Shown here piece after piece: positions 11,692-42,213 of a DNA stretch of 45,904 bases. Source of the DNA: Halioglobus sp. (GTDB lineage: Bacteria > Pseudomonadota > Gammaproteobacteria > Pseudomonadales > Halieaceae); assembly GCA_047626655.1 (NCBI GenBank), contig JBLHSI010000001.1:1-45904 (forward strand). The letters are read 5' to 3'. The position numbers and the translations under genes were made by a program. The notes below the pieces were generated by a model that searched no databases, was not told the DNA's origin, and worked only from the letters and a program-made list of their open reading frames with translations. How positions within the stretch are numbered: the stretch's first letter is position 1; every line of letters starts with the position of its first letter.

Positions 11692-13128
11692 TTATTGTTC
11701 CAGTTTATCCAATAGAGCGCGTATCTCAGATTCGTTGGGTGGCCCAAATCGAGTCAGCAACACATGGCCCTCAGAATCGGTAATGAGGGTGGCGGGCAGG
11801 CCATCTATTTGGAGTGCGTCGGTCAAAATTTTCTTTGCTGCCGCTCGCGATTGCTCGGATAAGCCAATCAGGAGCTCATAGGGTGGTGTGTACTTTGACA
11901 CCCATTCAGTGAGCAAGTCCTCGCCTTCCTCTTCATCGTAGGGAAGCCCCACCATAGCCATCACGTTCTCGCCAATGGAGTCGCGCAGCGTGGTCAGTGC
12001 CGGGAGCTCGGCCAAGCATGGACCACACCAAGTTGCCATTGTGGTGTACATGATGAGCTTCGATTCGCCTGTGTTGTTGATCAGGGGCAGCAAGATGGGT
12101 TTGTTGCGCACAACTGTGGGCTTATCGCGTACTACCGGCGTGGGCACTGTATCTGTCGCTGCTAGAAGTGAGCGTATCTCGGATTCGTTGGGGGGGCCGA
12201 AGCGCGTTAGCAGTACTCTGCCGCGGGTGTCGGTGATTAGGGTCGCCGGTAAGCCATCTATTTTGAGAGCACCTTTCAAAATGTTCTTTGCCGCCGTTCT
12301 AGAGTCATTCGCTAGTGTAGTGAGCAGTTGGTACGGCGGGTTATATTGATCCAGCCAGTCTTCCAGCAGGTTTTCACCCTCGTCTTCGTCGTAGGGAAGG
12401 CCCACCATGGCCATTACATTCTCGCCTATGGCGTCACGCAAACTAGTCAGCACCGGAAGCTCAGCGATGCACGGGCTGCACCAGGTGGCCATTGTGGTGT
12501 ACATGATTAAACGCTGTTCTCCGCTAGGGCTCACTAACGGAGGGAAGACTGGGAGGTTGTTATGGGGAGTTTCGATTGTCGAAAAGTCGATGGTGGCCGC
12601 ATAGGGAGCCACAGTAAATGATTGACCCGCAGGCGCAGCTTCTTTATTTTCGAATAGTGTGACTAATTGCCCCGCGTTGATGGGTCCGATGCTCTGTGTC
12701 TTACCTGATGGCCAGTGCACGCGAATATTATTTACTTGCGATTGCTCTCCCAGGCCGATCAGCATGGTCGCGCTATTTTGCGCGCCCATCCCTTCACCTG
12801 CGCGGTGCTCGCGGAGTAAAACCTTGTCATTCAATTCGACTTCTACTGTTACGCCATAGCCGTCACGATTACTCCAAGCCTGGTTCGCGTTGGGGGTTCT
12901 GTTACCGCCCTCGAAGCGCAGCGCAATGATTTGCATGGTGGAGTTTTGTGCGGAGTTTTGCTGCGCGCCGAGATTTCGGTACAAGGCAAAGCGAGGAGCA
13001 TTAGCGCCAACCACCGCGGCGTCCAGCCAACCATCGCGGTCAAAATCGAGCCAGCTGAAGGCCCTGCCGTCGCCTGAATGGTCGAGGCCGGAGACAGCGG
13101 AGACATCGGTGAACTCCTTGCCGCCCAA
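11692..13128 (-). CDS. 3' segment of the interrupted CRTAC1-family frame: last FG-GAP repeat, UnbV/ASPIC domain, and two TlpA-like thioredoxin domains
   Basis: UnbV_ASPIC-like WSNRDGYGVTVEV..GEGMGAQNS..IGLG..VHWPSGK. Two thioredoxin-fold domains carry WCSPC (12469-12480) and WCGPC (12016-12027). It is in the same frame as 13288..15399. The ORF-track start is an internal TTG (Leu). Confidence 0.8.
   Translation of the reverse strand: MGGKEFTDVSAVSGLDHSGDGRAFSWLDFDRDGWLDAAVVGANAPRFALYRNLGAQQNSAQNSTMQIIALRFEGGNRTPNANQAWSNRDGYGVTVEVELNDKVLLREHRAGEGMGAQNSATMLIGLGEQSQVNNIRVHWPSGKTQSIGPINAGQLVTLFENKEAAPAGQSFTVAPYAATIDFSTIETPHNNLPVFPPLVSPSGEQRLIMYTTMATWCSPCIAELPVLTSLRDAIGENVMAMVGLPYDEDEGENLLEDWLDQYNPPYQLLTTLANDSRTAAKNILKGALKIDGLPATLITDTRGRVLLTRFGPPNESEIRSLLAATDTVPTPVVRDKPTVVRNKPILLPLINNTGESKLIMYTTMATWCGPCLAELPALTTLRDSIGENVMAMVGLPYDEEEGEDLLTEWVSKYTPPYELLIGLSEQSRAAAKKILTDALQIDGLPATLITDSEGHVLLTRFGPPNESEIRALLDKLEQ
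11707..12540 (-). repeat. tandem intragenic duplication of a TlpA-like thioredoxin domain (period 453 bp, 151 codons)
   Basis: Copy 1 is about 12160-12540 and copy 2 about 11707-12087. The CxxC motifs lie exactly 453 nt apart. By hand alignment about 90 of 121 residues are identical. Confidence 0.9.
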
Positions 13129-13255
13129 ATTCAGAAATAGGTGGTTGCGCTCGTGGCCGCTAAAAGAAGAGCCGCGCTCCAGGTCTCTTGAACTGACGCG
13201 TAAAGCGCCCGCCTCACCGCCCCCGTCAAACTCATGAGTGATGGGAAGCTTCGAA

Positions 13256-13280
13256 TCCGTGCGCGCAACTGCGCGCCAGA
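13256..13280 (-). promoter_or_regulatory. SECIS-like RNA hairpin 3' of the in-frame UGA
   Basis: The mRNA reads UGA-ACUGACUUCUG-GCGCGC-AGUU-GCGCGC-ACGGA. A perfect 6-bp GC stem starts 11 nt after the UGA and carries an AGUU loop (GU in the loop). The stem can be extended by G-C, U-G, C-G and U-A pairs with one bulged A. Confidence 0.4.
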
Positions 13281-13287
13281 AGTCAGT

Positions 13288-15399
13288 TCAGGTGTCGACC
13301 GGGATTTCGGCTTCCCCCGGCGCCGTGTAATAACCACTCAAAGCAAAAATATCCAGGGTACCGTCGTTGTTAACGTCGGCAAATTGGCTACCCCAGCTCC
13401 AACCCGCATGCTCAACCGTTAAGCTGGGCTGGGTCATACCCGAGACATGCTGAAACGTACCTTCGATGTTGCGTAGCAGCGAGTTGCCGCGCGCCATCTT
13501 TACAATTCTCGGATCAATACCAGGAATTTGTGCAGTAATTCTTTGTCCGGCTTTGCTGTACATGTTCGAGACGTATAGATCTTGTCGACCGTCTTGATCG
13601 TAGTCGCCCCATGTGGCGCCCATGCCAAAGCCAATGTCGGCTGTGTTGCTGGCCTGTGTGACGTCGGTAAACTTACCTGTGCCATCATTGCGCAACAAAA
13701 CATTGGGGGAAAAATCATTGGCAACGTACAGATCCGGGTCGCCGTCACGATCGTAGTCGGCCCATGTCGATTGGTAGCTGTTTAGGAATAGACGGGTGTT
13801 GGCTTCGCTACCCACAGCAGTAAATCCCGAGCCCGTATTACGCAGAAGTACGTTTGGGGGCCCGGGTCTGTTGAGATTTTCGTGCGTGTCCTTTTTTTCT
13901 AATAAGCGGCTGAGTTCGTCAGAATCAGAGTCGGGCAAAAACCGTTCGAATGCCTCGCGGCCCTGATGTCGAATAAGGTCAGCGGCATATGTTGAAATAT
14001 ACAGATCAAGCAGGCCGTCGCCATCGTAGTCGGCTGCAGACATCGACGAAACGAAAAAGGGCATTGGGACATCTATATCTTTGGAGTGGTCAACATAAAC
14101 ACCGCCTTCATTCTTTAGGTAAACACTTCTAGCCAAAGTCCTGCCGACAAAGACATCGGGGTCACCATCGTTATCAAAATCTGCAAAAATGGCGGATGAA
14201 TTGAAATCGGTTAAAGCCAGCCCGTAGTCATCTGCGCTTTCACTGAATGTACCGTTGCCTTGATTGCGCAGGAGCATCGCCGGTCCCCACCGCGCCAGAA
14301 GATAGATGTCGTCGAATCCATCATCGTCGATATCGACGATAGCAACTCCGGGGTGTCGGTCGAATGCCGGCAAACTGAACAGCTCATGCGGCTTTGATCG
14401 GACACCATCTTCTTCGCCGAGCAAAAATTTTAGTACGAACTCTTCATGGCGTGAGCGACGTGCTTCAGCCAGGTCTGCCGGCGACAGCACCAAATCGAGT
14501 ACATCTGCAAACAGTAGTTGGTCTGATTCTTGTATTTGTAGCTTGGAGGTGTGCCATTCTTTTATACGCCAGCCGGAGGCCTCCTCCGCCGGTACAGATG
14601 GCTCGCGACCCCAAACCAGAGTGAGTTTGCCCTCAACCGATGCATGCTGACCTTGGTTCAGGCGCGCGAGCGCATAAAATCCCACGGAGGTCTCATAACG
14701 CTGGTGAGTGTCGTCAAGAAAACGGCCTTTTATCGGGTAGAACTTTGCATGCTCAAAATACTTGACTGTTGTTAACAACGGCTGCCACAGGAGCAAGCTT
14801 TCTCGTGAGATCGTCTGAGTCTGTTTCGCGATAGTAAGTTCGCGTTGGATTAGTTGGGCTGTTAGTGCTCTTGCAGGTGCAGAGCTTGTGGCGTCACTGG
14901 TTAGGTCCCGCACCATGACTTGCTCGGCAAACAGTAAGCTACCTTCGTGATCAGGTAACTTTAGGTTGAGAATACTGCTGGAGAGTGTTTTTTTCAGTGG
15001 TAGTGTTAGTTTGAGTAACAGTTCTTCGCCAGCCGACATCTCCTCCCATGCCAGGCGTAAGTCACGGTCCGGGTCGATGATGTGCAACGCTTTTAGGTTG
15101 CCATAGATACCCACACACAAAACAGACAGCAAGCCCACTACTGCGATGCGCACAGTAGAAACCGTAAATCTGAGGGCGGGCTGGCGCAGTATTAGCCATA
15201 CCCCGGCGGCGAAGATAAAAACTTGCAATACGACGATGATAGCGATGCTGGTCTCAGCGTAGATGTGCTGATCGGCGCTGAATAGCCGCTCCAGAGACCA
15301 CTTGTTAAAAATAAGGGCAACCAGCACCAATAACAGACCAATAAGGCGATGTGGGAATCTACCTGACTCTGCGCTTGAGTGTATTGGCTGTTCGTTCAT
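13288..15399 (-). CDS. 5' segment of the interrupted CRTAC1-family frame: 3 TM helices, an uncharacterised region, and FG-GAP/VCBS repeats, ending at an in-frame TGA
   Basis: N-terminal hydrophobic helices. Repeated D.D.DG..D calcium-binding-type FG-GAP motifs: DIDDDGFDDIYL, DFDNDGDPDVFV, DYDGDGLLDLYI, DYDRDGDPDLYV, DYDQDGRQDLYV, DVNNDGTLDIF. The frame terminates at TGA 13288-13290 but continues in the same frame. Confidence 0.85.
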   Translation of the reverse strand: MNEQPIHSSAESGRFPHRLIGLLLVLVALIFNKWSLERLFSADQHIYAETSIAIIVVLQVFIFAAGVWLILRQPALRFTVSTVRIAVVGLLSVLCVGIYGNLKALHIIDPDRDLRLAWEEMSAGEELLLKLTLPLKKTLSSSILNLKLPDHEGSLLFAEQVMVRDLTSDATSSAPARALTAQLIQRELTIAKQTQTISRESLLLWQPLLTTVKYFEHAKFYPIKGRFLDDTHQRYETSVGFYALARLNQGQHASVEGKLTLVWGREPSVPAEEASGWRIKEWHTSKLQIQESDQLLFADVLDLVLSPADLAEARRSRHEEFVLKFLLGEEDGVRSKPHELFSLPAFDRHPGVAIVDIDDDGFDDIYLLARWGPAMLLRNQGNGTFSESADDYGLALTDFNSSAIFADFDNDGDPDVFVGRTLARSVYLKNEGGVYVDHSKDIDVPMPFFVSSMSAADYDGDGLLDLYISTYAADLIRHQGREAFERFLPDSDSDELSRLLEKKDTHENLNRPGPPNVLLRNTGSGFTAVGSEANTRLFLNSYQSTWADYDRDGDPDLYVANDFSPNVLLRNDGTGKFTDVTQASNTADIGFGMGATWGDYDQDGRQDLYVSNMYSKAGQRITAQIPGIDPRIVKMARGNSLLRNIEGTFQHVSGMTQPSLTVEHAGWSWGSQFADVNNDGTLDIFALSGYYTAPGEAEIPVDT

Positions 15400-15718
15400 G
15401 ACGTCCTGTTTATCCTTGGTGAGCTATGCATTGCGCGGACGAAACAAACGGTTTATTCCAGTTGTAGTGTTCGGCTGGCATCAGCGCAAAATTGCCTAAA
15501 GAGGATAAACAATCTCCAGTTGGAAATCTATCGCAATTAGAAACCGTGGTTTTTAAGAGATCAATTGAACTCCGTCGTCGTATTCAAAGATTCTAATGCA
15601 CCAAATTTGTGCACTATAGTAGACGCTTGTTAGTACTTAGATGATGACATACCCTGTCGAGATGCTCACCGAAAAACAAAAATATCAGGGTCAGTATTAA
15701 ACACAGTATGTTTATGTC
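15400..15718. promoter_or_regulatory. divergent intergenic control region (CRTAC1-family gene <-> flippase/oxidase genes)
   Basis: 319-bp non-coding, AT-rich gap between divergently oriented starts at 15399 and 15719. No individual promoter elements could be called with confidence. Confidence 0.4.
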
Positions 15719-17185
15719 ATGAGCACAAACTATCAGCAGAAACAGAGTGTATCGCACAGTCAGGTGGTTATCATCTTGTCCACCGTGTTGCGGCTGGTGG
15801 CATCGCTTGCCCTAACAATGTTGATAGGTAGAGAGCTGGACCCAGCGGATTTTGGGTTTTACGCGCTGGTAATAACGCTTTTTGTCATGGCGAGAGAATT
15901 GATGGACGTCGGCTCTACGAGCTTGGCGGTGCGCGAAATAGCTCTTGATCCTAGTGGCGAAAAATCGATTCTGGAAAGGCTAGTCGGTTTGCGGCTAGTG
16001 GCAGGGATTATCCTCGGTATATTGTGTTTGAGTCTTGCATGGCAGCAAAGTGAGCTATCACACCGATTAGTATTGTCCGTCACCGCGCTTATGTTACCGC
16101 TGCTGGCAGTGGGGGCGCTAGGTGTTGTGTATCAACTGCGGCAAAACTTACTGCCACTAGCGATCAACTCAACGAGCTTACAATACGGCCTGCTAATAGG
16201 TTGTTTCGGGCTTTATTTTGTTCAGGCGCCGGCGTGGTCTTATCCCTGCCTGCTTCTTGTACGAGAGCTGGCCGGCTTGCTGTGGTTAAAAATACACGCA
16301 GGAAAAACGCTGGGATATACAGTTACACCGAATTTGGCTTTTAACAACATGCGGTCATTTTTGCGCAAGCTGGCTGTCGTTGGAGCTGCAGCTGCGATGT
16401 ACAACTTGTACTTTTACGTGGGTCCGCTACTCATTTGGCTGCTTCGCCCGGCAACAGAAATGGGTGCCTACTCCGCTGCATTTAGACCGATTAGCCAAAT
16501 ATTGTCATTTCCCTTGATGTTGATGGTTCCGCTGCTGCCTGTTCTCACCCAATTTTTTGCCAACGATCGCCCTGCGCTGCAAAGGCAGGCCGCATGCTTT
16601 ATTCCTCTCGCGATTGGCCTGGGTGCAATTGGCGGGGTGGTGGGTCTGGAGGTGAGCAGAGATCTACTGTTTGTGCTGTATGGCGACATCTATATTGTGG
16701 GAGCCTTGTCGGCGGAGAGAAGCTTGCAAATTCTTTCTCTGTCGTTCGCTTTTTCAATGGCAACGGCGGTTGTGATTATGTTTCTGCTGGCACAGGGCCT
16801 CGAACGAGTACTTGTTGTGATGTGCTCAATGGGTTTGATCGTCAATCTGTTGTGTAATTTTGTGCTGTTGCCAAAGATTGGTTTTACCGCCGCGGCGATG
16901 GCGACGCTCGCTACCGAAGTGGCGGTTTTCCTCTTTGGCGCCGTTACCATGATACGCCTCAAGGTTTGGAGAGTGTCTGCATTATCCCTCGCAGCCTGCC
17001 TGCTTCCGACAATCGTTTTGGCGATTGCAATTCAACTCATGCCCGAGGCTGGGCAAGGTTGGCCCAGGCTTGTACCGGTGCTGGTTCTGGCGGTTACCGC
17101 AATGTTGAGCTTGTTATTGCTGCCCAGCACGAAACGCGGGCGGGAGGATCTTTCTCGCCAAGCTGTGGACGCCGTCACAAGTTGA
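15719..17185 (+). CDS. MOP-superfamily oligosaccharide/polysaccharide flippase (first of two in the window)
   Basis: 488 aa and very hydrophobic (12 or more predicted helices). The N-terminal pattern LRLVASLALTMLIGRELDPADFGFYALV is typical of Wzx/polysaccharide biosynthesis protein families. Confidence 0.75.
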   Translation: MSTNYQQKQSVSHSQVVIILSTVLRLVASLALTMLIGRELDPADFGFYALVITLFVMARELMDVGSTSLAVREIALDPSGEKSILERLVGLRLVAGIILGILCLSLAWQQSELSHRLVLSVTALMLPLLAVGALGVVYQLRQNLLPLAINSTSLQYGLLIGCFGLYFVQAPAWSYPCLLLVRELAGLLWLKIHAGKTLGYTVTPNLAFNNMRSFLRKLAVVGAAAAMYNLYFYVGPLLIWLLRPATEMGAYSAAFRPISQILSFPLMLMVPLLPVLTQFFANDRPALQRQAACFIPLAIGLGAIGGVVGLEVSRDLLFVLYGDIYIVGALSAERSLQILSLSFAFSMATAVVIMFLLAQGLERVLVVMCSMGLIVNLLCNFVLLPKIGFTAAAMATLATEVAVFLFGAVTMIRLKVWRVSALSLAACLLPTIVLAIAIQLMPEAGQGWPRLVPVLVLAVTAMLSLLLLPSTKRGREDLSRQAVDAVTS

Positions 17186-17353
17186 GCAAAGAGCCTATTA
17201 GCAGCACTGCTTAGAGCGCAAAAGACTGATCTTTTTGGATGTTTTTTTGGTATGTTGCAAACACAATGAGGTAAAATGCGATCGTTAGGTTCTCCAGCCG
17301 CACCCATTTGGTGGCATCGTTGGTTTGCAAATAGGTAATGAAAAGAGGCACTT

Positions 17354-19168
17354 ATGAACAGGATTCACTCGCTTTTGGCGCTTACGTGCCTGCTGCCATT
17401 GCAGCATGTACACGCTCAAGGGACTATCTCTGGATTTGACCACTTCAGCTCACTGGTTGAATGGCAGGAGTCTTCTGGGCGCGAAGTAACGCCGCTGCAT
17501 GCATCGTTACTGCCAACCGGTGACATATTGTTTGTCAGCTACTTCAAGTTTTTTGAAGATCCGGAGTTAGATTTAACAACACCTGGATTTATACCTGAAT
17601 TTGCCTTTGTCATGGCCCCCGGCGCGCCTTATGTGCCTCCACCTGCAACAGTAACCGTGCAACCCGAGCTGATTCCATTCTCTCTCACCCTTGATATCGA
17701 TGAGCAAACGAATACCGCGTACTACAAAAGCCTAGTCTGCAGCGGCCACTCCTTAATGGAAGATGGCAGCTTGTTTTTCGGTAGCGGTACCGACGTTGAA
17801 ATCGATTTGGATCTTTATAACAGCGGTCAGCTTACAGAGAGCTTGGTTGTCGATGGATTGACTGAATCGCTCACTTACAACCCGTTTGGCCAAAGCTGGA
17901 TTCAAAACCCCGATACTATTGGCGCGGGGCCATTACTCGATAGGCCCGGACGCTGGTATGGCACCGTCACCAGACTCGCCGATTCAAGAATGTTACTGAC
18001 AGGCGGATATGAGAAAGTTGTGCCGGATAATTCTTACAACAATACGGTGGAGATTTTTGATCCGACAACAAACGCCTGGTCTATTGTTTCTGATTTAAAT
18101 GATACGCCGTTGGGCATTGAAAACCCCGATTATCCTCATGTGTTCCAGTACCCATTGGATTTCGGCTCCTACGGTTTGGTGCTAATGATTGGCGGTTCAG
18201 GAGAACCCAAGTTCTTGATGATGGATGGCGCCAACACATTTTGGTATGAGACCGGAAAGTATCGACCCGGAGCCCAGGAATATATCGATGCAAAAGCACC
18301 CGCTAAGGTCTTTCCCAATCATGGATCCTCTAGTGCTATGTTGCCTCTTCGGCTACCCGGTGATGGCTGGGGCTATACCAATGGTAGCGTCGTTAATGTA
18401 GGCGGCGCCCATATGACACCTATGGAAGGCAATGTTGACGTTTTTGATACGGGTTTAAATGAGTGGCTACCCTCCGTTAGCATGGGAGGTTTGCGCCATC
18501 ATGCATCAACGGTAATTCTTCCAGATGGTCGCATACTTATCCTCGGCGGCCACGATGACATGAGCCCTGTTAAGGAGACTGGGTTGGCGCTATACGTAGA
18601 CCCCAAAAACAATTTTGAAGTGACTAAAGGTTTGTCGGTCATGGCAGAAACACGCGGCTACCACACGGTGTCACTGTTAATACCCGATGGACGCGTATTA
18701 ATCGGTAGCGGTAACCCCGGTGGTAAGGAAGGCTTTGAGTTGCCCAATTTCCGCTACTACTATCCCGATTACATGTTTGAGCCTCGACCACGAATCGTCT
18801 CTATCAAGGAGACCATGGAGATGGCTAAATATTCGCTGCTCTTTGTGCCGCATTTAACGAATGTCGAGGAGGCAGTGCTCATTGGACTGGGCTCCATGAC
18901 ACACTCTTTTGATATGAGCCAGAGGAGCGTGCAACTTGCCGTGACCGACATGGCGATTATAATTCAATTGACTGCGCAGGGATGGGCAACCGTTGGTCCA
19001 GAGGAATGTGTGAGTCAACCGGAAAGCTGCTTCGATTTACATGCAATACGGGCACCTGAGTCAGAACAGATGGCACCTCCAGGTTATTATATGCTGTCTA
19101 TTCTCGATGAAAACCGTGTTCCATCACCTGCTAAAATGGTGAAACTAGAACGTAGCCCTAGTGCGTAA
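17354..19168 (+). CDS. secreted copper radical oxidase (galactose oxidase / glyoxal oxidase-like, AA5-type, with C-terminal DUF1929-like domain)
   Basis: Signal peptide MNRIHSLLALTCLLPLQHVHAQG. VCSGHS (Cys129, 17738-17740), GRWYGT (Tyr202, 17957-17959), RGYHTVSLLIPDGRVL (Tyr436-His437, 18659-18664) and MTHSFD (His517, 18902-18904) match the Cys-Tyr cofactor and Cu ligands of galactose/glyoxal oxidases. AAAGAGG precedes the ATG. Confidence 0.8.
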   Translation: MNRIHSLLALTCLLPLQHVHAQGTISGFDHFSSLVEWQESSGREVTPLHASLLPTGDILFVSYFKFFEDPELDLTTPGFIPEFAFVMAPGAPYVPPPATVTVQPELIPFSLTLDIDEQTNTAYYKSLVCSGHSLMEDGSLFFGSGTDVEIDLDLYNSGQLTESLVVDGLTESLTYNPFGQSWIQNPDTIGAGPLLDRPGRWYGTVTRLADSRMLLTGGYEKVVPDNSYNNTVEIFDPTTNAWSIVSDLNDTPLGIENPDYPHVFQYPLDFGSYGLVLMIGGSGEPKFLMMDGANTFWYETGKYRPGAQEYIDAKAPAKVFPNHGSSSAMLPLRLPGDGWGYTNGSVVNVGGAHMTPMEGNVDVFDTGLNEWLPSVSMGGLRHHASTVILPDGRILILGGHDDMSPVKETGLALYVDPKNNFEVTKGLSVMAETRGYHTVSLLIPDGRVLIGSGNPGGKEGFELPNFRYYYPDYMFEPRPRIVSIKETMEMAKYSLLFVPHLTNVEEAVLIGLGSMTHSFDMSQRSVQLAVTDMAIIIQLTAQGWATVGPEECVSQPESCFDLHAIRAPESEQMAPPGYYMLSILDENRVPSPAKMVKLERSPSA

Positions 19169-19200
19169 GCCGAGAACTTGGTCTAGTCAAGGATCCCTAG

Positions 19201-20154
19201 TTAGGGTTCTTTGACGGGTCGACTTTCTTGCGGTGGTGCAAACAAGTTGTGGATGTAGCGTCGTGTGACAGTTAATGGACGTGTTGCAAGATAGCGTATA
19301 GAGCCCTTCTTAAAGATTCTTATTAGTCCTTGCCATACATCCGTTTTTGTCAGGATTTCTAGTAGGCCAATATGTGCCTGATGGACTTCTCTGCGGTGTT
19401 TCAAAAGTGCTTTATCGATTAGCGGTTCGCAGATATCAAGAATTTCCAGGACTTCGTAGTGCACAGTGATTTTCGATGTTCCGGAATAAGAAATACTCTC
19501 CTCGTGTTTGCGATACCAGCAGCATAGTTCTGGTAATGCAGCGGCTAAGTAGCCTCTGGCCACCATTAGAATGTAGTAGTAGTCTGAGATTAGGACAATG
19601 CTGGGTGGAATGCCGCCTATTTCGAGTACTGCCGATCGGCGCAGAACGACAGAACTGTATGATATAAAAGAGGGCATGGTGATAAGCTTTTGGAATACAT
19701 CACCTTGCGGGAGTTCATTTCTATTGTGCCACCGATCGAAGGGCTCTACTTTTTCGGATTGATAAAACTGCAGGGCCCAGCCATAGACTATTCCGAGCTT
19801 TCCAGAAGTATCCCGATCAATGGCGGCGCTCTGTAGCGCCAGTTTATTTGCTGGCCAGATATCGTCATGATCCAGGAACGCTAGCCAGTCTCCCTTGGCA
19901 AAGTGCACCACCAAATTACGCGCTGGTCCGACGGTAGTATGTTCAGGTGCGTAGAAGTATTTGACTCTATCATCATCAAGGTCTTTACAAATCGCAGCAG
20001 TGTTGTCTGTAGACTGGTTGTCCCAAATAATGAGTTCCCAGTCGGTACAGGTTTGAGCGAATACGCTTTCTAGCGCTTCCGGTAAGTATTTTTCCCCATT
20101 GTATGCGTTGATAATGATGGAAAACTTTGGGGTTTTCGATTCACTCTTGTTCAT
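19201..20154 (-). CDS. family 2 glycosyltransferase
   Basis: FSIIINAYNGEKYL..ALESVFAQT..ELIIWDNQSTD and FLDHDD (DxD) motifs. Start taken as ATG 20154 (MNKSESKTPKFSIII); the ORF-track start at 20283 adds a non-homologous extension that covers a palindromic site. Confidence 0.8.
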   Translation of the reverse strand: MNKSESKTPKFSIIINAYNGEKYLPEALESVFAQTCTDWELIIWDNQSTDNTAAICKDLDDDRVKYFYAPEHTTVGPARNLVVHFAKGDWLAFLDHDDIWPANKLALQSAAIDRDTSGKLGIVYGWALQFYQSEKVEPFDRWHNRNELPQGDVFQKLITMPSFISYSSVVLRRSAVLEIGGIPPSIVLISDYYYILMVARGYLAAALPELCCWYRKHEESISYSGTSKITVHYEVLEILDICEPLIDKALLKHRREVHQAHIGLLEILTKTDVWQGLIRIFKKGSIRYLATRPLTVTRRYIHNLFAPPQESRPVKEP

Positions 20155-20201
20155 GATTATTATTAACTGACTATGACCTATAAGCATACGCGAACCACCC
20201 G

Positions 20202-20214
20202 ACAATTCAATTGT
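20202..20214. promoter_or_regulatory. palindrome ACAATT-C-AATTGT, candidate operator
   Basis: 6-bp perfect arms. It shares the AATTCAA core with the palindrome at 20501-20520 in the same divergent intergenic region. Confidence 0.3.
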
Positions 20215-20500
20215 TGATGAATAAGCTCGCTCCGTTATTGTCGAAAAGTCGCCATTTTGTGCACTTTCTAGGATTGTGCTCACTGCGCGGTAAAAAAAAT
20301 GCCCAAACGTGGCCTTTTAACGCTTATTTTATGAGTTGGGAAGGCCCTGGCCTTTTGTTTATCGAGGAGAAATGTTTGATGCGTTGTGGGGCATAAGAAA
20401 TTGAGGTACCAGTTCACAAAACGGAGATAATTACAGCAATTCGATCTAAGTGGCGCAACTATCTGCATAACTTAGTATGGGTTGTGGTTTGATCTTCCTT

Positions 20501-20520: not shown

Positions 20521-20537
20521 ACAAACAAGGACCTGAA

Positions 20538-21440
20538 ATGCAGGAGTTGGGATACGCTTGTTCCGCCTATGCCGAATCTCTGAGTGAATTTGGTACTCCG
20601 CAGCGGCTTGCTGAATCGGGAGGATGGATTTTGGAGAGGACTATCGCCGATTCGCGACTGCGAGATGCAATAGGGTGTTATCCAATTTTCAGCTGTACCG
20701 ATTGGTCGAAAATTCATTTGGATTTTGAAAACATCGGCGATGACTTGGTCAGTTTGTCTATGATCCCCGATCCGTTCGGCGATTACGACGTGGCCTACTT
20801 GAGAGAGTCCTTCAAGGACTTGGTGATACCTTTCAAGCAACACTATGTTATTGATATGGAGCGACCAGTAGAGGATATCGTCTCGCGCCATCACAAAGCA
20901 GCTGTTCGCAAAGCGCAGGGAAAAATTCAAACTGAAGTGTGTCTTAAGCCGTTAGAAATTCTAGACGAGTGGGTTGCCTTGCATCAGAACCTGGTTGCCA
21001 AACACGGTATTACGGGTGTGCGTGCTTTTTCCAGGCGGTCCTTTGAGCGGCAGTTAAGCACACCGGGATTAGTCGTTTTGCTGGCAAAGCACAATAACGA
21101 AATAGTGGGTGCACAGTTGTGGTTTCAGCATGCCAATGTAGCCTACGGGCATGTTCTGGCTTTTAGTGATCTGGGTTACAAACTTGGCGCAAGCTACGCT
21201 TTGTATTGGTTTGCGCTAAATTATTTTTCTGACAAGGTGCGATGGTGTGACCTTGGTGGCGTGGCAGGAAACAAAGACAGCGCGGAAAGTGGTCTTCACA
21301 AATTTAAAGAAGGGTGGTCAACGGGGCAGCAAACGGCTTATCTTTGTGGCCGAATTTTAAACCCATCACGTTATAAAGAGCTGGTAAAAAAAAACGCACT
21401 AACCGCTGATTTTTTCCCGGCCTACAGGCAGGCTTTCTGA
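20538..21440 (+). CDS. FemAB-like / GNAT-fold (Acetyltransf_6-type) transferase
   Basis: 300 aa. The C-terminal half (NEIVGAQLWF..AYGHV.AFS..G.KLGASYALYW..GLHKFKEGWS) resembles the FemAB/BioF2-like acyl- or aminoacyl-transferase fold. This rests on motif recollection, not a search. Confidence 0.5.
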   Translation: MQELGYACSAYAESLSEFGTPQRLAESGGWILERTIADSRLRDAIGCYPIFSCTDWSKIHLDFENIGDDLVSLSMIPDPFGDYDVAYLRESFKDLVIPFKQHYVIDMERPVEDIVSRHHKAAVRKAQGKIQTEVCLKPLEILDEWVALHQNLVAKHGITGVRAFSRRSFERQLSTPGLVVLLAKHNNEIVGAQLWFQHANVAYGHVLAFSDLGYKLGASYALYWFALNYFSDKVRWCDLGGVAGNKDSAESGLHKFKEGWSTGQQTAYLCGRILNPSRYKELVKKNALTADFFPAYRQAF

Positions 21441-21496: not shown

Positions 21497-22654
21497 ATGA
21501 CGGTTGTCGACGGAAATAATAAATCAATGGTTGCGGCCGCTAAGCCGCTTTTTCCGGCAGAAGATATTGCCAGTCTTCAGAACACGTTTGGCAAAATACT
21601 AGAGTCGGGTCGCCTTATCTTGGGTGAACAAACGCATGGCTTCGAAGAAGAATTTAAATCTTATGTCGGCGCACAGTACGCTGTTGCTGTTAGTAGCTGT
21701 ACTGCTGCTATTCAAATCGCGTTGCGATACTACAAGGTAGCGGGTCGCGAGGTTATTTTGCCAACCAATAACTTTGTTGGTGTGGTGAGCGCTGTGATTG
21801 CAGAGGGTGGGCTACCCGTGTTGGCAGAAATGAACCCGGATACTTTTTGCGGCACTACAGATGATATTCTAAATCGAATCACCGACAACACAGCCGGGAT
21901 TATTATCGTCCATATCGCAGGACTTATCTCGCCTGATGTAGAGCGCCTGAGTAAAGTGTGTGAAGAGAGAGGCCTATTTTTACTTGAAGATGCCTCGCAC
22001 GCGCACGGTGCTTCAATTGATGGTCAAAAAGCGGGTGCTTTGACAGAAGTGGGTTGTTTCTCTTTTTATCCCACCAAGATGTTGACTACATGCGTTGGCG
22101 GTATGCTGACTACGCGTAATCCCGAACTGGCGTCTTATGCGCGTTCTGTTCGTCATCACGGGGTAGGCGGCAGCCTCGAAGATATTGTGCTTTTGGGAAA
22201 CGACTGGTGCATGAGTGAAATCCATGCCGCCATGGGCCGCTCTCAGTTACTTCGAGTGGACGATAATGTTGATCATCGCAACGAAATGGTCGCTCGCTAT
22301 CGGGCGGGCTTGCAAGACAAGTCCTGGTTGACGATACCCAGCTATCCAGACAATATTCGGCACGCTTATTACAAGTTTCCGACGTTGCTCGCGGAGCAGG
22401 CTGACTGCTTGAAATTTCGACGAATGTTGTTCGAAGACTATGGAGTAGAGAATGGTGCGATCTATAATCCACCTTGTCATCTGCAACCGGTACTTCGACA
22501 GAGATATGGCTTTAGCGAAGGCCTATTCCCAATTGCAGAATCAGTTTTGAATCGTCAATTGTGCCCGCCTATTCATTCGGCCATTACAGAAGCGGAGGTC
22601 GATCGAGTGATCGAATCGATCATCGCGGTGGCGCAGCGTTGTGGTTTGGAGTAG
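21497..22654 (+). CDS. DegT/DnrJ/EryC1/StrS-family PLP-dependent sugar aminotransferase
   Basis: Motifs LGEQTHGFEEEFKSYVGAQYAVAVSSCTAA, DASHAHGA and FSFYPTKMLTT (PLP lysine). AAGGGAG precedes the ATG. Confidence 0.85.
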   Translation: MTVVDGNNKSMVAAAKPLFPAEDIASLQNTFGKILESGRLILGEQTHGFEEEFKSYVGAQYAVAVSSCTAAIQIALRYYKVAGREVILPTNNFVGVVSAVIAEGGLPVLAEMNPDTFCGTTDDILNRITDNTAGIIIVHIAGLISPDVERLSKVCEERGLFLLEDASHAHGASIDGQKAGALTEVGCFSFYPTKMLTTCVGGMLTTRNPELASYARSVRHHGVGGSLEDIVLLGNDWCMSEIHAAMGRSQLLRVDDNVDHRNEMVARYRAGLQDKSWLTIPSYPDNIRHAYYKFPTLLAEQADCLKFRRMLFEDYGVENGAIYNPPCHLQPVLRQRYGFSEGLFPIAESVLNRQLCPPIHSAITEAEVDRVIESIIAVAQRCGLE

Positions 22655-22736: not shown

Positions 22737-23549
22737 ATGGCAGAAAAGGTCAGTGAAAATATGGGACGTTTGTCTGGCAAAGTGGCTATCGTTGCCGGTG
22801 CCGCATCTGCAAGCGGTGCAGTAGGGATAGGCGCGGCTACTGCCACCTTATTTGCCCGTGAAGGCGCTAAGGTTCTTTTGGTCAACCGCACTCAGGACCG
22901 CGTGAAACGGCTGTGTGAAGAGATTATTGAACAAGGTGGTGATTGTTCGGTATTCGTTGGAGATGTAACACAGGAAGACGATGTTAAGCGTATGGTTGAA
23001 GCGGCGCTTACGACTTACGGGCAAATCGATATTTTGCATAATAATGCCGGTGCGGGTGCGCCCGGGACAGTGGTGAATGTAGAGCAGGCCGTTTGGGACA
23101 ATGCGATGAATACGAATTTACGGGCAACCATGCTGACTTGTAAATACAGTATTCCTCATATGATTGCTTCGGGCGGAGGCTCTATTATCAACACTTCGAC
23201 TGTGGGTGCTACGCAGGGGTTTCGTCGAGGCGATATAGGTTTTGCTGCCTATACGGCCTCCAAGGCCGGCTTGATTGGTTTGACTCTATCGATAGCGGCA
23301 GACTATGCCGCCGAGGGCATTCGGGCCAATAGCCTCATTGTTGGAATGGTGAACACGCCGGCGCTCGACAAATTTGGCGAAGAGGCGCGTGAAAAGCGTC
23401 GCTTAGCGGTACCCCTGCAAACCGAAGGCACACCGTGGGATGTGGCTTCGGCCGCAGTGTATTTAGCAAGCGAGGAGGCGCGCTGGGTTACCGGCATTTC
23501 GCTGCCAATAGATGGCGGACAAATGAACCTGCGTCAGTGGCCGGGCTAA
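22737..23549 (+). CDS. short-chain dehydrogenase/reductase (SDR)
   Basis: GKVAIVAGAASASGAVGIG cofactor motif, NNAG, catalytic YTASKAG (YxxxK), and PIDGG at the C-terminus. Confidence 0.85.
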   Translation: MAEKVSENMGRLSGKVAIVAGAASASGAVGIGAATATLFAREGAKVLLVNRTQDRVKRLCEEIIEQGGDCSVFVGDVTQEDDVKRMVEAALTTYGQIDILHNNAGAGAPGTVVNVEQAVWDNAMNTNLRATMLTCKYSIPHMIASGGGSIINTSTVGATQGFRRGDIGFAAYTASKAGLIGLTLSIAADYAAEGIRANSLIVGMVNTPALDKFGEEAREKRRLAVPLQTEGTPWDVASAAVYLASEEARWVTGISLPIDGGQMNLRQWPG

Positions 23550-23560
23550 AACGCTAGCGC

Positions 23561-24742
23561 TTACTCTTTTTCTTTATTGAAAAACTTCAGTGGTTCATAC
23601 ACTTCTTTGGCCAAAGCGTCATGCAGTGCCGCTTTGCTTTTGTAGTTCTTGAGTACCAGTTGCGCCATTTTGACATAGCCGTCTACGACTGCATCCCAGC
23701 GATAAAGAGAGTCCGAACGACTCTTAGCAAGGATACGCAGTGCTGACACTTTCTCTGGGTCGTTATCAAGCTCTTGAATTATGGAAGCGAGATGGTTATC
23801 TCTTTTGGAAAAGAACATGCCGTCGTCGGTCATGACTTGGCGATGAAAAATGACGTCCATTGCCACCGGCGCGGCCGACATGTGCATTGCGTTCAACAAG
23901 CTGGGATTAGTGCCTCCCACTTCATGTCCATGCAAATACACATAAGAATTTTCGAACAAGGCGTTGAGTTTGTTCTTTTGGTAGATCGACCCTATGCAAT
24001 GCACAATCTCGTCATCTTCAGCGGCGATAGCTCTGCCGTAAGGTGTGTCATATCGAGCGTCACCCACCACAATAAGTGGTTTGGTAGACTTTGCCTTGCG
24101 ATACTCACGGATAATGACATCGATATTATTGTCGGGCTCTATTCGTGCGACACAAAGGTAGTATTCGCCTTTGGTCAAGCCAAATTCTTTTAAGATAGAT
24201 TCGTCAGAATGGTCTCCCACTTCTCCTGCATAGGGAATAAAACTGCTTTTTGATTTGTATTCCTCTACATAGTAGTCCTGCATCGCCTTAGAGTCTGTGA
24301 CTAGCCAATGCGCGAATAAAGCGGAGATTTTTTCAGACCATTTATAGTAGCGTTGCTGTAGCGGGCTCCATTTCTGGCGTTTCCAGCCCATTCCGTCGGT
24401 ATGAATGATCACAGGGTGTCCACGGACTCGAAGCGGCAGAACAAAAGGGCCATTCCCGGGGTCCAAAACCAAGACTACATCGTAGCTACAAAAAGCAGCA
24501 TGCAGTATGGCGATATTGCTGTGTACGATACTCTCGAGGCTTTTGCCACCTGGGGCGGGCAGATAAACACATTTTACCCCGTTGTAGAGCGGAGGCTTGC
24601 TGTCGTAGTAATTACTGCGGCAATAGACAGTTACTTCAAATCCATACTCTGCGACCATGCGCGTCGCCATTTGTTCGACCAACGTGCTAAAACCACTGTA
24701 TTTAGCGGGAATACCCCGGTCACCAATTATTGCGAGTTTCAT
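23561..24742 (-). CDS. DUF1972-type family 4 glycosyltransferase
   Basis: MKLAIIGDRGIPAKYSGFSTLVEQ is the characteristic DUF1972 N-terminus. C-terminal GT-B motif: HGHEVGGTNPSLLNAM. Confidence 0.8.
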   Translation of the reverse strand: MKLAIIGDRGIPAKYSGFSTLVEQMATRMVAEYGFEVTVYCRSNYYDSKPPLYNGVKCVYLPAPGGKSLESIVHSNIAILHAAFCSYDVVLVLDPGNGPFVLPLRVRGHPVIIHTDGMGWKRQKWSPLQQRYYKWSEKISALFAHWLVTDSKAMQDYYVEEYKSKSSFIPYAGEVGDHSDESILKEFGLTKGEYYLCVARIEPDNNIDVIIREYRKAKSTKPLIVVGDARYDTPYGRAIAAEDDEIVHCIGSIYQKNKLNALFENSYVYLHGHEVGGTNPSLLNAMHMSAAPVAMDVIFHRQVMTDDGMFFSKRDNHLASIIQELDNDPEKVSALRILAKSRSDSLYRWDAVVDGYVKMAQLVLKNYKSKAALHDALAKEVYEPLKFFNKEKE

Positions 24743-24824
24743 ATTTTATTCTTCTATTGAGGCCAAGGTAACGCAGATCTGAAATAGGTAGAAGCGTCAC
24801 CCGGAGGTCTGTTTTAGTTAGTTT

Positions 24825-25991
24825 TCACTGTAGTCCGTATTGCTCGGCAATGCCGATTTCACTCTCTGGCAAGGAGGCTATTTTCGCATACATTGCCAGA
24901 TAGTCCTGCTTCAATTCAAGCCAGTTATACTTGCGACTGATTTCTTCGCCATTGCTCAATGCTACTAATTTCTCTGGATGGTCTACCAGTTCTCTAACCC
25001 GGTTTGCTAAATTCCCTTCGACATTCATGTCGAGAGCTGCAGGCTCGTTATTCATCAACCAGAGAAAATGAGGTGCATTATGCGTTAATAATGGGAGGCC
25101 GGTTGAAGCACCCTCGATTAATGCCAGACCAAATGCTTCATAGGTGGCAGCGTGAACCATCAAATCTGCTAAGGTGAATAACTCGCCAACACACTTTGAA
25201 GGCAAATGAGTAATTCTGCAGCGATCCCCCAATTTTTCTTGTGCATATGTTAGTAAATCCAGGTCGCCTTGGTCCATGCTCCCGTCAACCCAAAGCAGAA
25301 TATCGCCTTCAAGTTTGCTAAATTCATCGATTAGGTAATCAGTGCGTTTGTGATAGCGATTGATGGCTGCCACACAGACCACGACAAACGTACTCTCGCT
25401 AATATCATATTTTTCACGCAAATCTTTGCGGCTGTTTGTTACCGAGAAAAAGTCGGGGTTGATCCCCAGAGGAATCACTGTCATAAATTCTGCGGGAATA
25501 TTGTAGTCGATAGCCTCGTTATGGGTAACCTGCGAAATCTGCTGTATGTGGTCCGAGGGCGGATAGTCACTCGCAGGCATTGCGCACCCTTCACAATAGA
25601 GAATACGAAAATTCAGCTTGAACATTCTTCGCAGCTTGTAGAGTATCCTGGTTAGAGGTGGGTCGGCGCAGTGAACTATTTGAAAGCCCTGGCCCCGCAT
25701 AGCGAGTAGTAGGCTTATTGCAAATGTTAAACACTCTACATGATATTCTGTTCTGCCCAGTAACTTGTGAATGGGGAACCATTTCAAAAACCTGCCGTTG
25801 CGAGTAGTAAAGAGAAGCCTGCGCTCTTTTTTTGATTCCTTGCCGCCACCCTTGAACAGGGTAACATCGATGTCATCCTCCAATAAGTCAAAAAGATCTT
25901 GGAACATTCGCTCGAAGCCCCTTTGCACCAAGCCAACACCCGGGCAAGCCATGGCGACTTTTACTCCGCTGGAATTTTTGTTGTCAGTCAT
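24825..25991 (-). CDS. family 4 (group 1) glycosyltransferase
   Basis: GT-B C-terminal motif YEAFGLALIEGASTGLPLLTHN (EX7E-like). Confidence 0.8.
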   Translation of the reverse strand: MTDNKNSSGVKVAMACPGVGLVQRGFERMFQDLFDLLEDDIDVTLFKGGGKESKKERRLLFTTRNGRFLKWFPIHKLLGRTEYHVECLTFAISLLLAMRGQGFQIVHCADPPLTRILYKLRRMFKLNFRILYCEGCAMPASDYPPSDHIQQISQVTHNEAIDYNIPAEFMTVIPLGINPDFFSVTNSRKDLREKYDISESTFVVVCVAAINRYHKRTDYLIDEFSKLEGDILLWVDGSMDQGDLDLLTYAQEKLGDRCRITHLPSKCVGELFTLADLMVHAATYEAFGLALIEGASTGLPLLTHNAPHFLWLMNNEPAALDMNVEGNLANRVRELVDHPEKLVALSNGEEISRKYNWLELKQDYLAMYAKIASLPESEIGIAEQYGLQ

Positions 25992-26093
25992 TGTGCTGCT
26001 GCTGATACATAGGTTTCACCTCTCTTCATAGGAGTGGAGTAAGCATGCTTTGCTCTTGATAGAAATATGACCGGCGTGAGGTCTGTACTGAGA

Positions 26094-27545: not shown

Positions 27546-27550
27546 TGGGG

Positions 27551-29065: not shown

Positions 29066-29074
29066 AAGAGCAGC

Positions 29075-29815
29075 TTAATCTTCAGATAAAATGTGTTTTA
29101 CATTGGTGATATTGTGGTTCGCAAATATTTCCATTTTCTGATCAAAGCTCTCAATCGCGGTAGTTCGCTCCTCGAGGTGGAGAAGAACGAGGTCGGCTGA
29201 CTTTGCGTAGGGCAAGTAACGCGTATCGATCTGAATATCATCTTGCTGCAATATGACGTAATCGTACTCTGCTTTGAACTTGTCTATAAATGTTTGAACT
29301 TGCTCTTCCGAGACATAGGGTACTCGGCGCTGTTGAGCTACCCCGGCAGAAATAAAGGAAACGTTGCCGTTTAACTGGTGAGTTACCGACTCAAAATCTG
29401 GTGTGGAACTGTCGCCCGGGACCAGTACATCGATAATTCCTGGTCGATCCTCCAGCCCGAGTAAGCGCGTAAGGCCGTTGTTTCTGAATGTTGCATCGAT
29501 AATCAGCACCGAACTGCTTAACTCATCCTGCAGAAAATGGCTAAACATCAACAAAACCTCACTGCTTTTGGTCATATCGGAGGCGGAGGAAAAAACGATG
29601 GAATTCCCCGTTTCAGAGGTGTTCATGTCCAATGCTATTTTTCGAGCTAGATAGCGATAAGACGCGGACGGAAACACAGGGTTTTCAAATCGCGCGAGAA
29701 ACTTTTGCGTCTGCTCACGTATTCTCTTTATGAGGTATATGAGGGCGGTGCGCAGAGAACTTAGCAGTTTCTCGCTCCCACGACGTAAATCGGCTTTATT
29801 TGGTTTAGATAACAA
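29075..29815 (-). CDS. BY-kinase/CpsD-like P-loop fold protein with degenerate Walker motifs (probable pseudo-kinase)
   Basis: The layout matches the Wzc/CpsD ATPase domain, but Walker A is SSASDMTKS (residues 76-84), Walker A' is VLIIDATFR, and the Walker B region is DYVILQQDD. There is no C-terminal Tyr cluster. TTG start with GAGGA 6 nt upstream. Confidence 0.55.
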   Translation of the reverse strand: MLSKPNKADLRRGSEKLLSSLRTALIYLIKRIREQTQKFLARFENPVFPSASYRYLARKIALDMNTSETGNSIVFSSASDMTKSSEVLLMFSHFLQDELSSSVLIIDATFRNNGLTRLLGLEDRPGIIDVLVPGDSSTPDFESVTHQLNGNVSFISAGVAQQRRVPYVSEEQVQTFIDKFKAEYDYVILQQDDIQIDTRYLPYAKSADLVLLHLEERTTAIESFDQKMEIFANHNITNVKHILSED

Positions 29816-29841
29816 GGAAATTCCTCAAATGCTGCAATAAA

Positions 29842-31494: not shown

Positions 31495-31500
31495 ATATCT

Positions 31501-33263: not shown

Positions 33264-33266
33264 TTT

Positions 33267-34238: not shown

Positions 34239-34245
34239 AACAATC

Positions 34246-34944: not shown

Positions 34945-35240
34945 TTTGTTAAAATGTCCTTTTCTCAATTGATTATTATTAGGATTACATGTCTAGAAAC
35001 TGCTTCCCGCAGAAGGCACCGTATGATCAAGTGTCGCCCGATGCCTCAGGCGTTTGCTGTGTTCACCTTACCGCTGCAATATTATAGATGAGAAAAACCT
35101 TACCATCATGAGCAAGCGCTGAGGGAGATGAATAGCCGGCTAATCCTTTTTCTGTGGGGTACTTCTCAGATTGCGCCAAAACTTGTCGTTGTCGGCCAAG
35201 CCCGGTTCCGCTGGAAGACGCCGCTAGAGCTGAAAGCTCG

Positions 35241-36698: not shown

Positions 36699-36753
36699 TT
36701 GATACCCCGACCCGCGATGTGTAGGTAAGTTTTCTGTGTGAGAGGGTCGGAGT

Positions 36754-37959: not shown

Positions 37960-37963
37960 CGCG

Positions 37964-39888: not shown

Positions 39889-39897
39889 TTGGCCAAA

Positions 39898-42211: not shown

Positions 42212-42213
42212 CA

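Follow-up and report, generated by a model that had tools for sequence, protein, structure and literature searches.

A predicted exported copper radical oxidase linked to Wzx/Wzy-type exopolysaccharide genes in Halioglobus sp. and related loci

We analysed a 45,904-nucleotide stretch of Halioglobus sp. DNA (assembly GCA_047626655.1, contig JBLHSI010000001.1, positions 1 to 45,904; hereafter the window), in which a gene at 17354..19168 encodes a 604-residue relative of galactose and glyoxal oxidases, here called CRO for copper radical oxidase. Considered by itself, the protein is very probably a functional, Sec-exported copper radical oxidase, and we regard the balance as tilting somewhat in favour of the wider, joint statement that it is such an enzyme and also a dedicated component of a Wzx/Wzy-type exopolysaccharide (EPS) pathway, oxidising the flipped unit or the polymer. 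The residues of its predicted copper site are invariant in our homologue alignment, and its closer homologues are consistently encoded among EPS genes; this conserved linkage suggests an undescribed oxidative tailoring step in Wzx/Wzy-type EPS synthesis. A search of the literature for copper radical oxidases in Wzx/Wzy, exosortase or Gram-negative EPS loci found nothing relevant.

Predicted copper site, fold and export of the oxidase

An earlier note on this DNA, made from the sequence alone, had named the residues of a Cys-Tyr radical copper site (C129, Y202, Y436-H437 and H517) together with their motif contexts. All were found at exactly these positions, and all are invariant in a MAFFT alignment of 77 homologues (34–94% identity, mean column identity 36%). 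The gene and its relevant parts are the following:

17354..19168, plus strand: CRO gene, 604 residues, with signal peptide, propeller and E-set domain
17354..17416, plus strand: predicted Sec signal peptide MNRIHSLLALTCLLPLQHVHA, from inspection of the sequence, with cleavage before Q22
17738..17740, plus strand: Cys129, predicted thioether partner of Tyr202, in VCSGHS; present in 77 of 77 homologues and aligned with the Cys of GlxA LFCTGHT
17954..17959, plus strand: Trp201-Tyr202, predicted second-shell Trp and cross-linked equatorial Tyr ligand, in GRWYGT
18659..18664, plus strand: Tyr436-His437, predicted axial Tyr and first His copper ligand, in RGYHTVSLL
18902..18904, plus strand: His517, predicted second His ligand, in the E-set domain, in MTHSFD

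The invariant columns of the alignment number 42 of 604 and include C129, Y202, Y436, H437 and H517; the chance that five positions named beforehand would all fall among these 42 is about 1.6e-6. Trp201 is conserved in at least 90% of the same sequences. A second set, comprising 88 sequences translated from genome and metagenome loci (24–69% identity), contains Y202, Y436, H437 and H517 without exception (88/88), C129 in 85 and W201 in 84 sequences; the three that lack C129 are two truncated open reading frames (ORFs) and one sequence with glycine at this position. That the catalytic residues are fully invariant speaks for selection on the chemistry.

The register of these motifs was checked by searching a profile of the homologue alignment against PDB sequences. 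When CRO is aligned in this way to GlxA of Streptomyces, VCSGHS pairs with LFCTGHT, RWYGT with RWYPT, RGYHT with RNYHS, and MTHSFD with STHVTD; RGYHT also aligns with RTYHS of the Pseudoarthrobacter galactose oxidase, and MTHSFD with VTHTV of 9g8h. The GlxA variant W288A (PDB 5lxz) has its alanine at the exact column aligned to W201, which identifies Y202 as the equivalent of GlxA Tyr289, the cross-linked tyrosine.

The hidden Markov model searches and structure prediction that the earlier note had proposed recovered the kelch and galactose-oxidase-like E-set (DUF1929) domains and matched both GlxA and galactose oxidase. The protein consists of a signal peptide (residues 1–21), a kelch-type beta-propeller (about residues 30–477) and the E-set domain (residues 478–597). 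Pfam PF09118 (galactose-oxidase E-set) scores 57.9 bits against a cutoff of 25 over residues 478–597, and Kelch_1 scores 36.7 bits against 20.1, whereas Glyoxal_oxid_N (PF07250), at 24.5 bits, lies under its gathering score of 37.5; precomputed PF07250 matches in CRO homologues are mostly "faint" or "weak". For an AlphaFold2 model computed from the homologue alignment, pLDDT was 93.3 and pTM 0.91. Each of the 27 PDB entries that Foldseek ranked closest to this model is a copper radical oxidase (E 1e-21 to 5e-29, TM-score about 0.6–0.66, identity 15–19%), among them GlxA, the Fusarium and Pseudoarthrobacter galactose oxidases, Colletotrichum oxidases and the Fusarium glyoxal oxidase; the matches to GlxA, GalOx, AlcOx and GLOX extend over the full length, with E between 1e-23 and 1e-29. 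By profile score, the Pseudoarthrobacter enzyme (9G43) ranks highest with 163 bits, although over the C-terminal half only, and GlxA 157 bits across all four motif regions; among further solved enzymes, FgrGalOx scores about 141 bits and FgrAldOx, the weakest, 96 bits.

Translation of CRO starts at an ATG with AGAGG 5 nt upstream, and the same methionine begins the closest homologues. Its N-terminus, MNRIHSLLALTCLLPLQHVHA followed by QG, has recognisable n-, h- and c-regions with V at -3 and A at -1 (VHA before Q), in agreement with the signal peptide proposed by the earlier note, and such AxA-Q-type N-termini recur across the CRO clade, one member of which has a Tat-like RREFL motif. In the AlphaFold2 model, residues 2–12 of this region form a helix and residues 13–21 have low confidence. 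Judged from these sequence features, cleavage would leave residues 22–604 as the mature protein. A lipoprotein reading was rejected, as A-L-T-C12 fits no lipobox and C12 is not conserved. Since a Sec signal peptide leads to the periplasm in a Gram-negative cell, the description of CRO as acting after flipping is better founded than the "post-export" oxidation of the earlier note. The only cysteines of the mature protein are C129, Cys552 (19007..19009) and Cys559 (19028..19030); the latter two form a pair in an insertion of the E-set domain, with Cys at each position in 36 of 77 homologues, and are probably joined as a disulfide.

Several assignments to established groups were considered and set aside. 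CRO is not a GlxA orthologue by NCBIfam NF052501 (89.5 bits against an equivalog cutoff of 800, with only residues 384–537 matching well). Membership in AA5_1 was rejected because Glyoxal_oxid_N stays under its gathering score, and membership in AA5_2 because a W290-type stacking Trp is lacking, the corresponding Y219/E220 being variable across the family. The latter correspondence was set by motif spacing (GGSW against GGYE) rather than by superposition, using the FgrGalOx sequence around Y272-W290.

In AA5_1 aldehyde oxidases (W509-Y510), as in GlxA (W288-Y289), the residue just before the cross-linked Tyr is a second-shell Trp (PMC13094651). Compared with W290 of galactose oxidase, a residue supplied by another loop, this Trp is flipped, and the authors of that 2026 study linked the arrangement to a glyoxal/aldehyde-oxidase activity profile (PMC13094651). 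The W201-Y202 order of CRO is GlxA/AA5_1-like and unlike that of galactose oxidase, and by its sequence CRO belongs to a deep, unclassified bacterial branch with a GlxA/AA5_1-like active-site architecture. With a second shell of this type, CRO could as well turn a hydrated aldehyde into an acid as an alcohol into an aldehyde.

Among known systems, GlxA (SCO2837/SLI_3188, PDB 4UNM) matches CRO best in structure (Foldseek E 5e-29 to 9e-29, TM-score about 0.66); its Cys, Trp-Tyr, Tyr-His and His motifs correspond one to one to those of CRO, it has the same W-Y second shell, and it too is extracytoplasmic and genetically tied to a glycan-making machine. However, the two proteins are only 15–16% identical; GlxA is held in a Gram-positive cell by an uncleaved transmembrane (TM) helix, whereas CRO has a predicted cleavable signal peptide in a Gram-negative one; and the partner of GlxA is the processive GT2 synthase CslA, whereas those of CRO are a MOP flippase and the Wzx/Wzy/Wza/Wzc pathway. 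Beside CRO, where Pfam identifies the MOP flippase and a 360-residue GT2, no CslA-like processive synthase was found. The AA5_1 glyoxal/aldehyde oxidases (FgrAldOx, PDB 9N3U) share the core of propeller and E-set, the first shell and the Trp-Tyr order with CRO, but they are fungal, often have WSC domains, and lie outside a glycan-locus context. The AA5_2 galactose oxidases (FgrGalOx, 1GOF; P. siccitolerans, 9G43/9G8H) share the fold and the first-shell ligands; unlike them, CRO has no CBM32 domain and no conserved counterpart of the stacking Trp W290, and identity is 17–19%. In Stigmatella aurantiaca, the galactose-oxidase homologue FbfB is reportedly encoded beside the chitin-synthase-like FbfA and is said to be needed for a surface or multicellular trait; FbfB would then pair with a synthase-type GT2, whereas CRO is paired with the Wzx/Wzy pathway.

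Linkage to exopolysaccharide genes

Neighbourhoods were screened by tblastn with the window proteins at 1e-8 and with queries from other loci. At loci with usable flanks that encode a CRO homologue of at least 50% identity, EPS genes lie within 10 kb in every case (12/12); the earlier note had named homologues without any association with glycan loci as part of what would speak against its proposal, and within this clade the association is found throughout. A MOP flippase gene lies within 10 kb of the CRO homologue at 10 of the 12 loci and was not detected at L092 and L097, which are short or one-sided. Flippase counterparts stand beside the CRO gene or at most 10 kb from it at L001, L003, L007, L009, L088, L089 and L096, and at L002 a Polysacc_synt gene is two genes away. 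A Halioglobus metagenome-assembled genome (MAG), whose CRO homologue is 69% identical, is fully syntenic, while homologues of 50–59% identity are embedded in EPS genes in unrelated assemblies (L002, L003, L007, L008, L088, L089, L092, L096 and L097); at L009, the cassette lies 6–10 kb downstream of the CRO gene. The seven EPS-linked sequences present in the alignment group as one clade of a neighbour-joining tree, and the unlinked P0033, P0047 and P0042 branch just outside it. The closest named relative of the window is a Halioglobus sp. MAG, with 62–82% amino acid identity across the locus.

This clade is small, although the wider family is large. At least 574 bacterial relatives of CRO were confirmed by tblastn from 600 candidate stretches (one genome per species), those listed belonging to Actinomycetota, Acidobacteriota, Gemmatimonadota, Planctomycetota, Proteobacteria and other phyla. 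A set of 1.84 billion cluster representatives yielded 260 matches at E <= 1e-30, yet full-length representatives with at least 50% identity number only about five. The view of the earlier note that these enzymes are mostly fungal therefore applies to characterised enzymes and not to homologues.

The window itself contains the following genes around CRO:

15719..17185, plus strand: MOP-family flippase MOP1 (PF01943, E 5.5e-13), upstream of and co-directional with CRO, with a 168-bp gap between them
19201..20283, minus strand: GT2 glycosyltransferase (PF00535, E 7e-29), convergent with CRO and 32 bp away
20538..21440, plus strand: FemAB-like acyl/aminoacyl-transferase (Pfam, NCBIfam)
21497..22654, plus strand: DegT-type sugar aminotransferase (Pfam, NCBIfam)
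22737..23549, plus strand: SDR (Pfam, NCBIfam)
23561..45202: rest of the Wzx/Wzy-type EPS locus (Pfam, NCBIfam), including the next five entries
26094..27545, minus strand: second MOP flippase (PF01943)
27551..29065: Wzy_C protein (Pfam/NCBIfam)
29075..31494: split Wzc, consisting of Wzz/GNVR and a tyrosine-kinase-like protein
31501..32256: Wza (Poly_export)
35241..36698: WcaJ-type initiating transferase (486 bits against a cutoff of 410.75)

The position of CRO directly after a MOP flippase and next to glycosyltransferases, as described in the earlier note, is thus borne out by the PF01943 and PF00535 matches at 15719..17185 and 19201..20283. The EPS locus extends from about 11.0 kb to beyond 45.2 kb and has a Wzx/Wzy set by Pfam and NCBIfam, namely an initiating transferase, a MOP flippase, a Wzy-type polymerase and Wza/Wzc, together with at least five glycosyltransferases. 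The part at 23561..45202 also encodes two GT4s, a GT2, a CDP-glucose-pathway-like pair, further glycosyltransferases, a C-methyltransferase, an epimerase and GFO/IDH oxidoreductases. In the left flank (1–11 kb), where GC is slightly higher, the ORFs scanned include those for PilT-like T2SSE ATPases, a HemN-like radical SAM protein and an alpha/beta hydrolase, and no polysaccharide gene was found among them. The placement of CRO at the edge of the locus, also from the earlier note, is only roughly right, as the conserved cassette also takes in the FG-GAP/ASPIC/thioredoxin genes on the left side of the flippase. A signal of horizontal transfer was looked for in base composition and dismissed, GC in the CRO region being 0.48–0.51, as in the rest of the EPS locus. 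The two MOP flippases of the window are only weakly alike (one short local match of about 25–30% identity, E near 1e-4); the second sits with Wzy/Wzc and MOP1 with CRO, a duplication also seen in L001, L007 and L089 and suggestive of the flipping of two different lipid-linked substrates.

The constant members of the cassette are CRO, the MOP flippase, the gene convergent with CRO and an aminotransferase. The convergent gene encodes a GT2 in the window and in L001, where the counterpart is 72% identical, and a conserved protein of about 400 residues elsewhere, for which no homologue was found in the window. This protein appears to be soluble and has no sequence match in Pfam, NCBIfam or the PDB. 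It is encoded at the following positions, in each case with the flippase following:

L002 11859..13070, L003 11741..12865 and L007 10683..11885, minus strand: convergent protein of about 400 residues
L088 10794..12035 and L089 4056..5294, minus strand: convergent protein of about 400 residues

Two variants of the cassette can be distinguished by the aminotransferase: (i) a DegT type with FemAB-like and SDR genes; and (ii) a class-III (omega-type) aminotransferase, with an LpxO/OlsC-like acyl hydroxylase upstream of CRO. FemAB-like, DegT and SDR counterparts with 55–80% identity stand beside CRO in L001, L002, L003 and L088, except that the SDR counterpart was not detected in L003; L097 has a DegT counterpart. 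In L088, genes for FemAB-like, FG-GAP, ASPIC, AhpC/TSA, DegT and SDR proteins and CRO follow one another head to tail on one strand. Two natural fusions, P0018 of L008 (CRO with a C-terminal Ig-like domain and FG-GAP repeats, 1011 residues) and P0017 (CRO with an Ig-like and two DUF4214 domains, 942 residues), indicate an extracytoplasmic, surface-associated life of CRO. Just upstream of the CRO gene, L009 (4120..9425) and L003 (941..7162) contain a selenoneine/ergothioneine-type cluster that encodes a GT4, an AIRS/SelD-like protein, a DinB_2+FGE-sulfatase protein (EgtB/SenA-like) and Methyltransf_33 (EgtD-like), with a Transglut_core protein downstream in this context.

Words sampled from 15500..20400 are fully shared (100%) with many sea-ice metagenomes, and also with seawater and sediment. 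In the assembled contigs of one sea-ice metatranscriptome library, 87% of the sampled words of the CRO gene occur at a depth of 6–13, whereas depth is 0 over 16071–16992, the middle and 3' part of the flippase gene. One contig of this kind begins at 17291, within the 168-bp gap and 14 nt past a TAAAAT box (17272–17277); this start, together with the contrast in depth to the flippase gene, suggests that CRO has its own promoter. A scan of 15300–20600 for promoters and terminators gave no more matches than expected from shuffled sequence. A further contig (18283..19530) extends from within CRO beyond the stop codon and into the 3' end of the GT2 gene that converges with it, which indicates overlapping convergent transcripts or read-through.

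A putative selenoprotein encoded beside the oxidase

Divergent from the pair of MOP1 and CRO lies a long frame interrupted by a single stop codon:

11692..15399, minus strand: putative selenoprotein, 1235-codon frame with an in-frame TGA
13256..13280, minus strand: SECIS-like hairpin CUGGCGCGC-AGUU-GCGCGCACGG, GC-rich, beginning 7 nt after the UGA

The frame consists of an FG-GAP ORF (13288..15399) and an ORF with ASPIC/UnbV and two thioredoxin-like domains (11692..13128), with the single TGA between them. In order, it encodes three N-terminal TM segments, an FG-GAP propeller, the TGA (codon 704, 13288..13290), UnbV_ASPIC, and thioredoxin-like domains with WCSPC and WCGPC. We consider it likely, on these sequence grounds, that this is a selenoprotein that has been split by gene callers and has remained unannotated; read through to its end, the frame would give a periplasmic protein of 1235 residues that is anchored in the membrane and contains Sec704 and two WCxPC thioredoxin motifs.

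L001, L088 and the distant L118 share the TGA as well as the residues that flank it (PVDT-U-TDFWRAV), also over a stretch annotated as intergenic; the flanking consensus is [T/L]-U-[T/S]-D-[F/Y/W]-W-R. The hairpin, which resembles a selenocysteine insertion sequence (SECIS), is kept in three loci with one compensatory change from G-C to A-U, and the G of its GU-containing apical loop lies 18 nt after the UGA, a distance that fits bacterial SECIS geometry. Rfam gave no SECIS match at the hairpin, only an unrelated match at chance level. The read-through product is colinear across the TGA with an intact 814-residue paralogue, and the intact paralogue of L001 is gapped at that position. Among the best 120 homologues (P0255–P0374) of a 240-residue stretch spanning the TGA (window 12680..13569, minus strand), every gene call is one-sided and no Cys-containing homologue spans the position. 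That no gene call spans the TGA points to a family-wide split, presumably at UGA, including in genomes of 7–8 Mb. Directly downstream of the CRO cassette, L088 (14333..17821) encodes selA, selB and tRNA-Sec (anticodon TCA). The FG-GAP/ASPIC/thioredoxin protein accompanies CRO in the window, L001, L088 and L097, but its family also occurs without CRO, so that it is not an obligatory partner. A literature search for ASPIC/UnbV/FG-GAP selenoproteins found no description of them.

Proposed function and its alternatives

According to the reading that we favour, CRO would bind one copper ion through Tyr202, Tyr436, His437 and His517 and would form the Cys129-Tyr202 thioether by self-processing outside the cytoplasm, with Trp201 stacked as in GlxA and glyoxal oxidases; it would catalyse a two-electron oxidation with O2 and release H2O2. 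As a dedicated part of a Wzx/Wzy-type EPS cassette that comprises a flippase, a glycosyltransferase (or the protein of about 400 residues) and genes for amino-sugar synthesis and acylation, it would act on the outer side of the inner membrane, either on the unit delivered by the neighbouring flippase or on the growing or finished polymer, producing an aldehyde from a primary alcohol, such as a hexose C6-OH, or a carboxylate from a hydrated aldehyde. The coupling, across the clade, to a flippase and a glycosyltransferase-type neighbour points to a flipped lipid-linked unit or the polymer as substrate, and since the repeat unit is begun with glucose by a WcaJ-type glucose-1-phosphate transferase, it is plausible that it offers a free C6-OH.

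In part of the clade, the periplasmic FG-GAP/Sec/ASPIC/thioredoxin protein may serve as a redox partner, which might keep Cys129 or copper reduced for cofactor biogenesis or handle H2O2; the reducing role is speculation by analogy with TlpA-type periplasmic reductases. It is doubtful, though conceivable, that CRO and this putative selenoprotein act as a periplasmic redox pair that places aldehyde or carboxylate groups on a flipped unit with an amino sugar, the EPS of this sea-ice bacterium then having reactive groups for covalent cross-linking, for instance through imines. Cross-linking through the chemistry of CRO is pure speculation.

Several points weigh against a dedicated role of CRO in EPS synthesis. 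None of the four loci with CRO homologues of 45–49% identity (L004, L006, L090 and L091) has EPS neighbours, and 78 further genome loci, at 24–38% identity, have scattered single EPS matches only; a homologue of 36% identity at L005 is likewise without EPS-type neighbours. The wider family thus keeps the active site with no glycan genes nearby, and the chemistry is therefore not intrinsically glycan-directed: the glycan link that the earlier note had read from gene placement holds for the clade of at least 50% identity and fails for the family at large. Many sugars of the locus are probably 6-deoxy or dideoxy and would have no primary alcohol to offer. The GlxA-type second shell goes with in vitro activity on small aldehydes (PMC13094651). 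The physiological substrate of GlxA is itself still unresolved, and GlxA is perhaps partly a structural partner. We infer from homology and the fold match that Cys129, Tyr202, Tyr436, His437 and His517 converge on one copper site, and the metatranscriptome support, which consists of assembled contigs, may include DNA carry-over.

With these points in mind, CRO could instead be an oxidase of small, diffusible compounds of the glycolaldehyde or glyoxal type in the periplasm or matrix, which mainly supplies H2O2 for defence, signalling or a peroxide-using partner, or detoxifies reactive carbonyls, and which is located with EPS genes only through a shared surface or biofilm programme. The W201-Y202 order, shared with GlxA and with AA5_1 aldehyde oxidases that prefer small aldehydes in vitro, the occurrence of the same active site outside glycan loci in the wider family, and an adjacent thioredoxin or AhpC/TSA-type redox protein that could handle peroxide are all consistent with this explanation. 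We nevertheless consider it unlikely, as the EPS linkage of all 12 loci, across cassettes that otherwise differ, is hard to explain by co-regulation alone, and as the window encodes no peroxidase or lytic polysaccharide monooxygenase-type consumer of H2O2. GlxA forms a complex with CslA through its uncleaved N-terminal TM helix, and the synthase is inactive without it; by this precedent, and given the flippase gene within 10 kb at 10 of the 12 loci, CRO might be docked on the flippase, the polymerase or the adjacent glycosyltransferase, where it would be needed for activity of the machinery or guidance of the nascent chain, with catalysis secondary. The N-terminus of CRO, however, looks cleavable (AxA-Q), no CslA-like processive synthase adjoins the gene and the catalytic residues are fully invariant, all of which makes such a role rather unlikely.

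The target of CRO might also be a protein or a lipid, such as matrix or surface proteins of the FG-GAP or PEP-CTERM type, or a hydroxylated acyl or amino-alcohol substituent. This would accord with the FG-GAP fusion P0018, with FG-GAP neighbours in the window, L001, L088, L097 and L005, and with the LpxO/OlsC-like hydroxylase upstream of CRO and the class-III aminotransferase nearby in one cassette variant. However, more than half of the linked loci lack the FG-GAP partner, the aminotransferases have no export signals and hence belong to another compartment, and we know of no precedent for copper radical oxidases that act on proteins, so that we regard this as improbable. Least probable by far is a catalytically dead kelch/E-set lectin or scaffold: although the Glyoxal_oxid_N score is low (24.5 against 37.5) and identity to solved copper radical oxidases is only 15–19%, the cofactor and ligand residues and the second-shell Trp are kept over a range of 24–94% identity.

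To our knowledge, work on copper radical oxidases has dealt almost wholly with fungi, and the single glycan-tied example from bacteria, GlxA-CslA, belongs to a Gram-positive organism and depends on a synthase, with its in vivo chemistry unresolved. What is new here is a known enzyme superfamily in a new partnership, namely with a Wzx/Wzy cassette of Gram-negative bacteria. The GlxA precedent indicates that a glycan machine can have such an oxidase as its obligatory partner, and also that what the oxidase does chemically in vivo may be difficult to establish; the system described here would provide a second, genetically distinct setting in which to ask what such oxidases do to nascent glycan. 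The conserved in-frame UGA and the SECIS-like hairpin in a widespread split gene have value for annotation whatever the role of CRO, and if CRO and the putative selenoprotein do act as a pair, this would be a new post-flipping tailoring step for Wzx/Wzy systems, coupled to a previously unannotated selenoprotein family. If the polymer is what CRO oxidises, this would explain the carbonyl or extra acidic groups that some marine and sea-ice EPS gain after assembly, and would offer a bacterial, E. coli-compatible scaffold for the functionalisation of polysaccharides. A monophyletic clade of exported copper radical oxidases in the Wzx/Wzy-type EPS cassettes of aquatic Gram-negative bacteria would extend the partnership of these enzymes with glycan synthesis to the commonest route of polysaccharide assembly.

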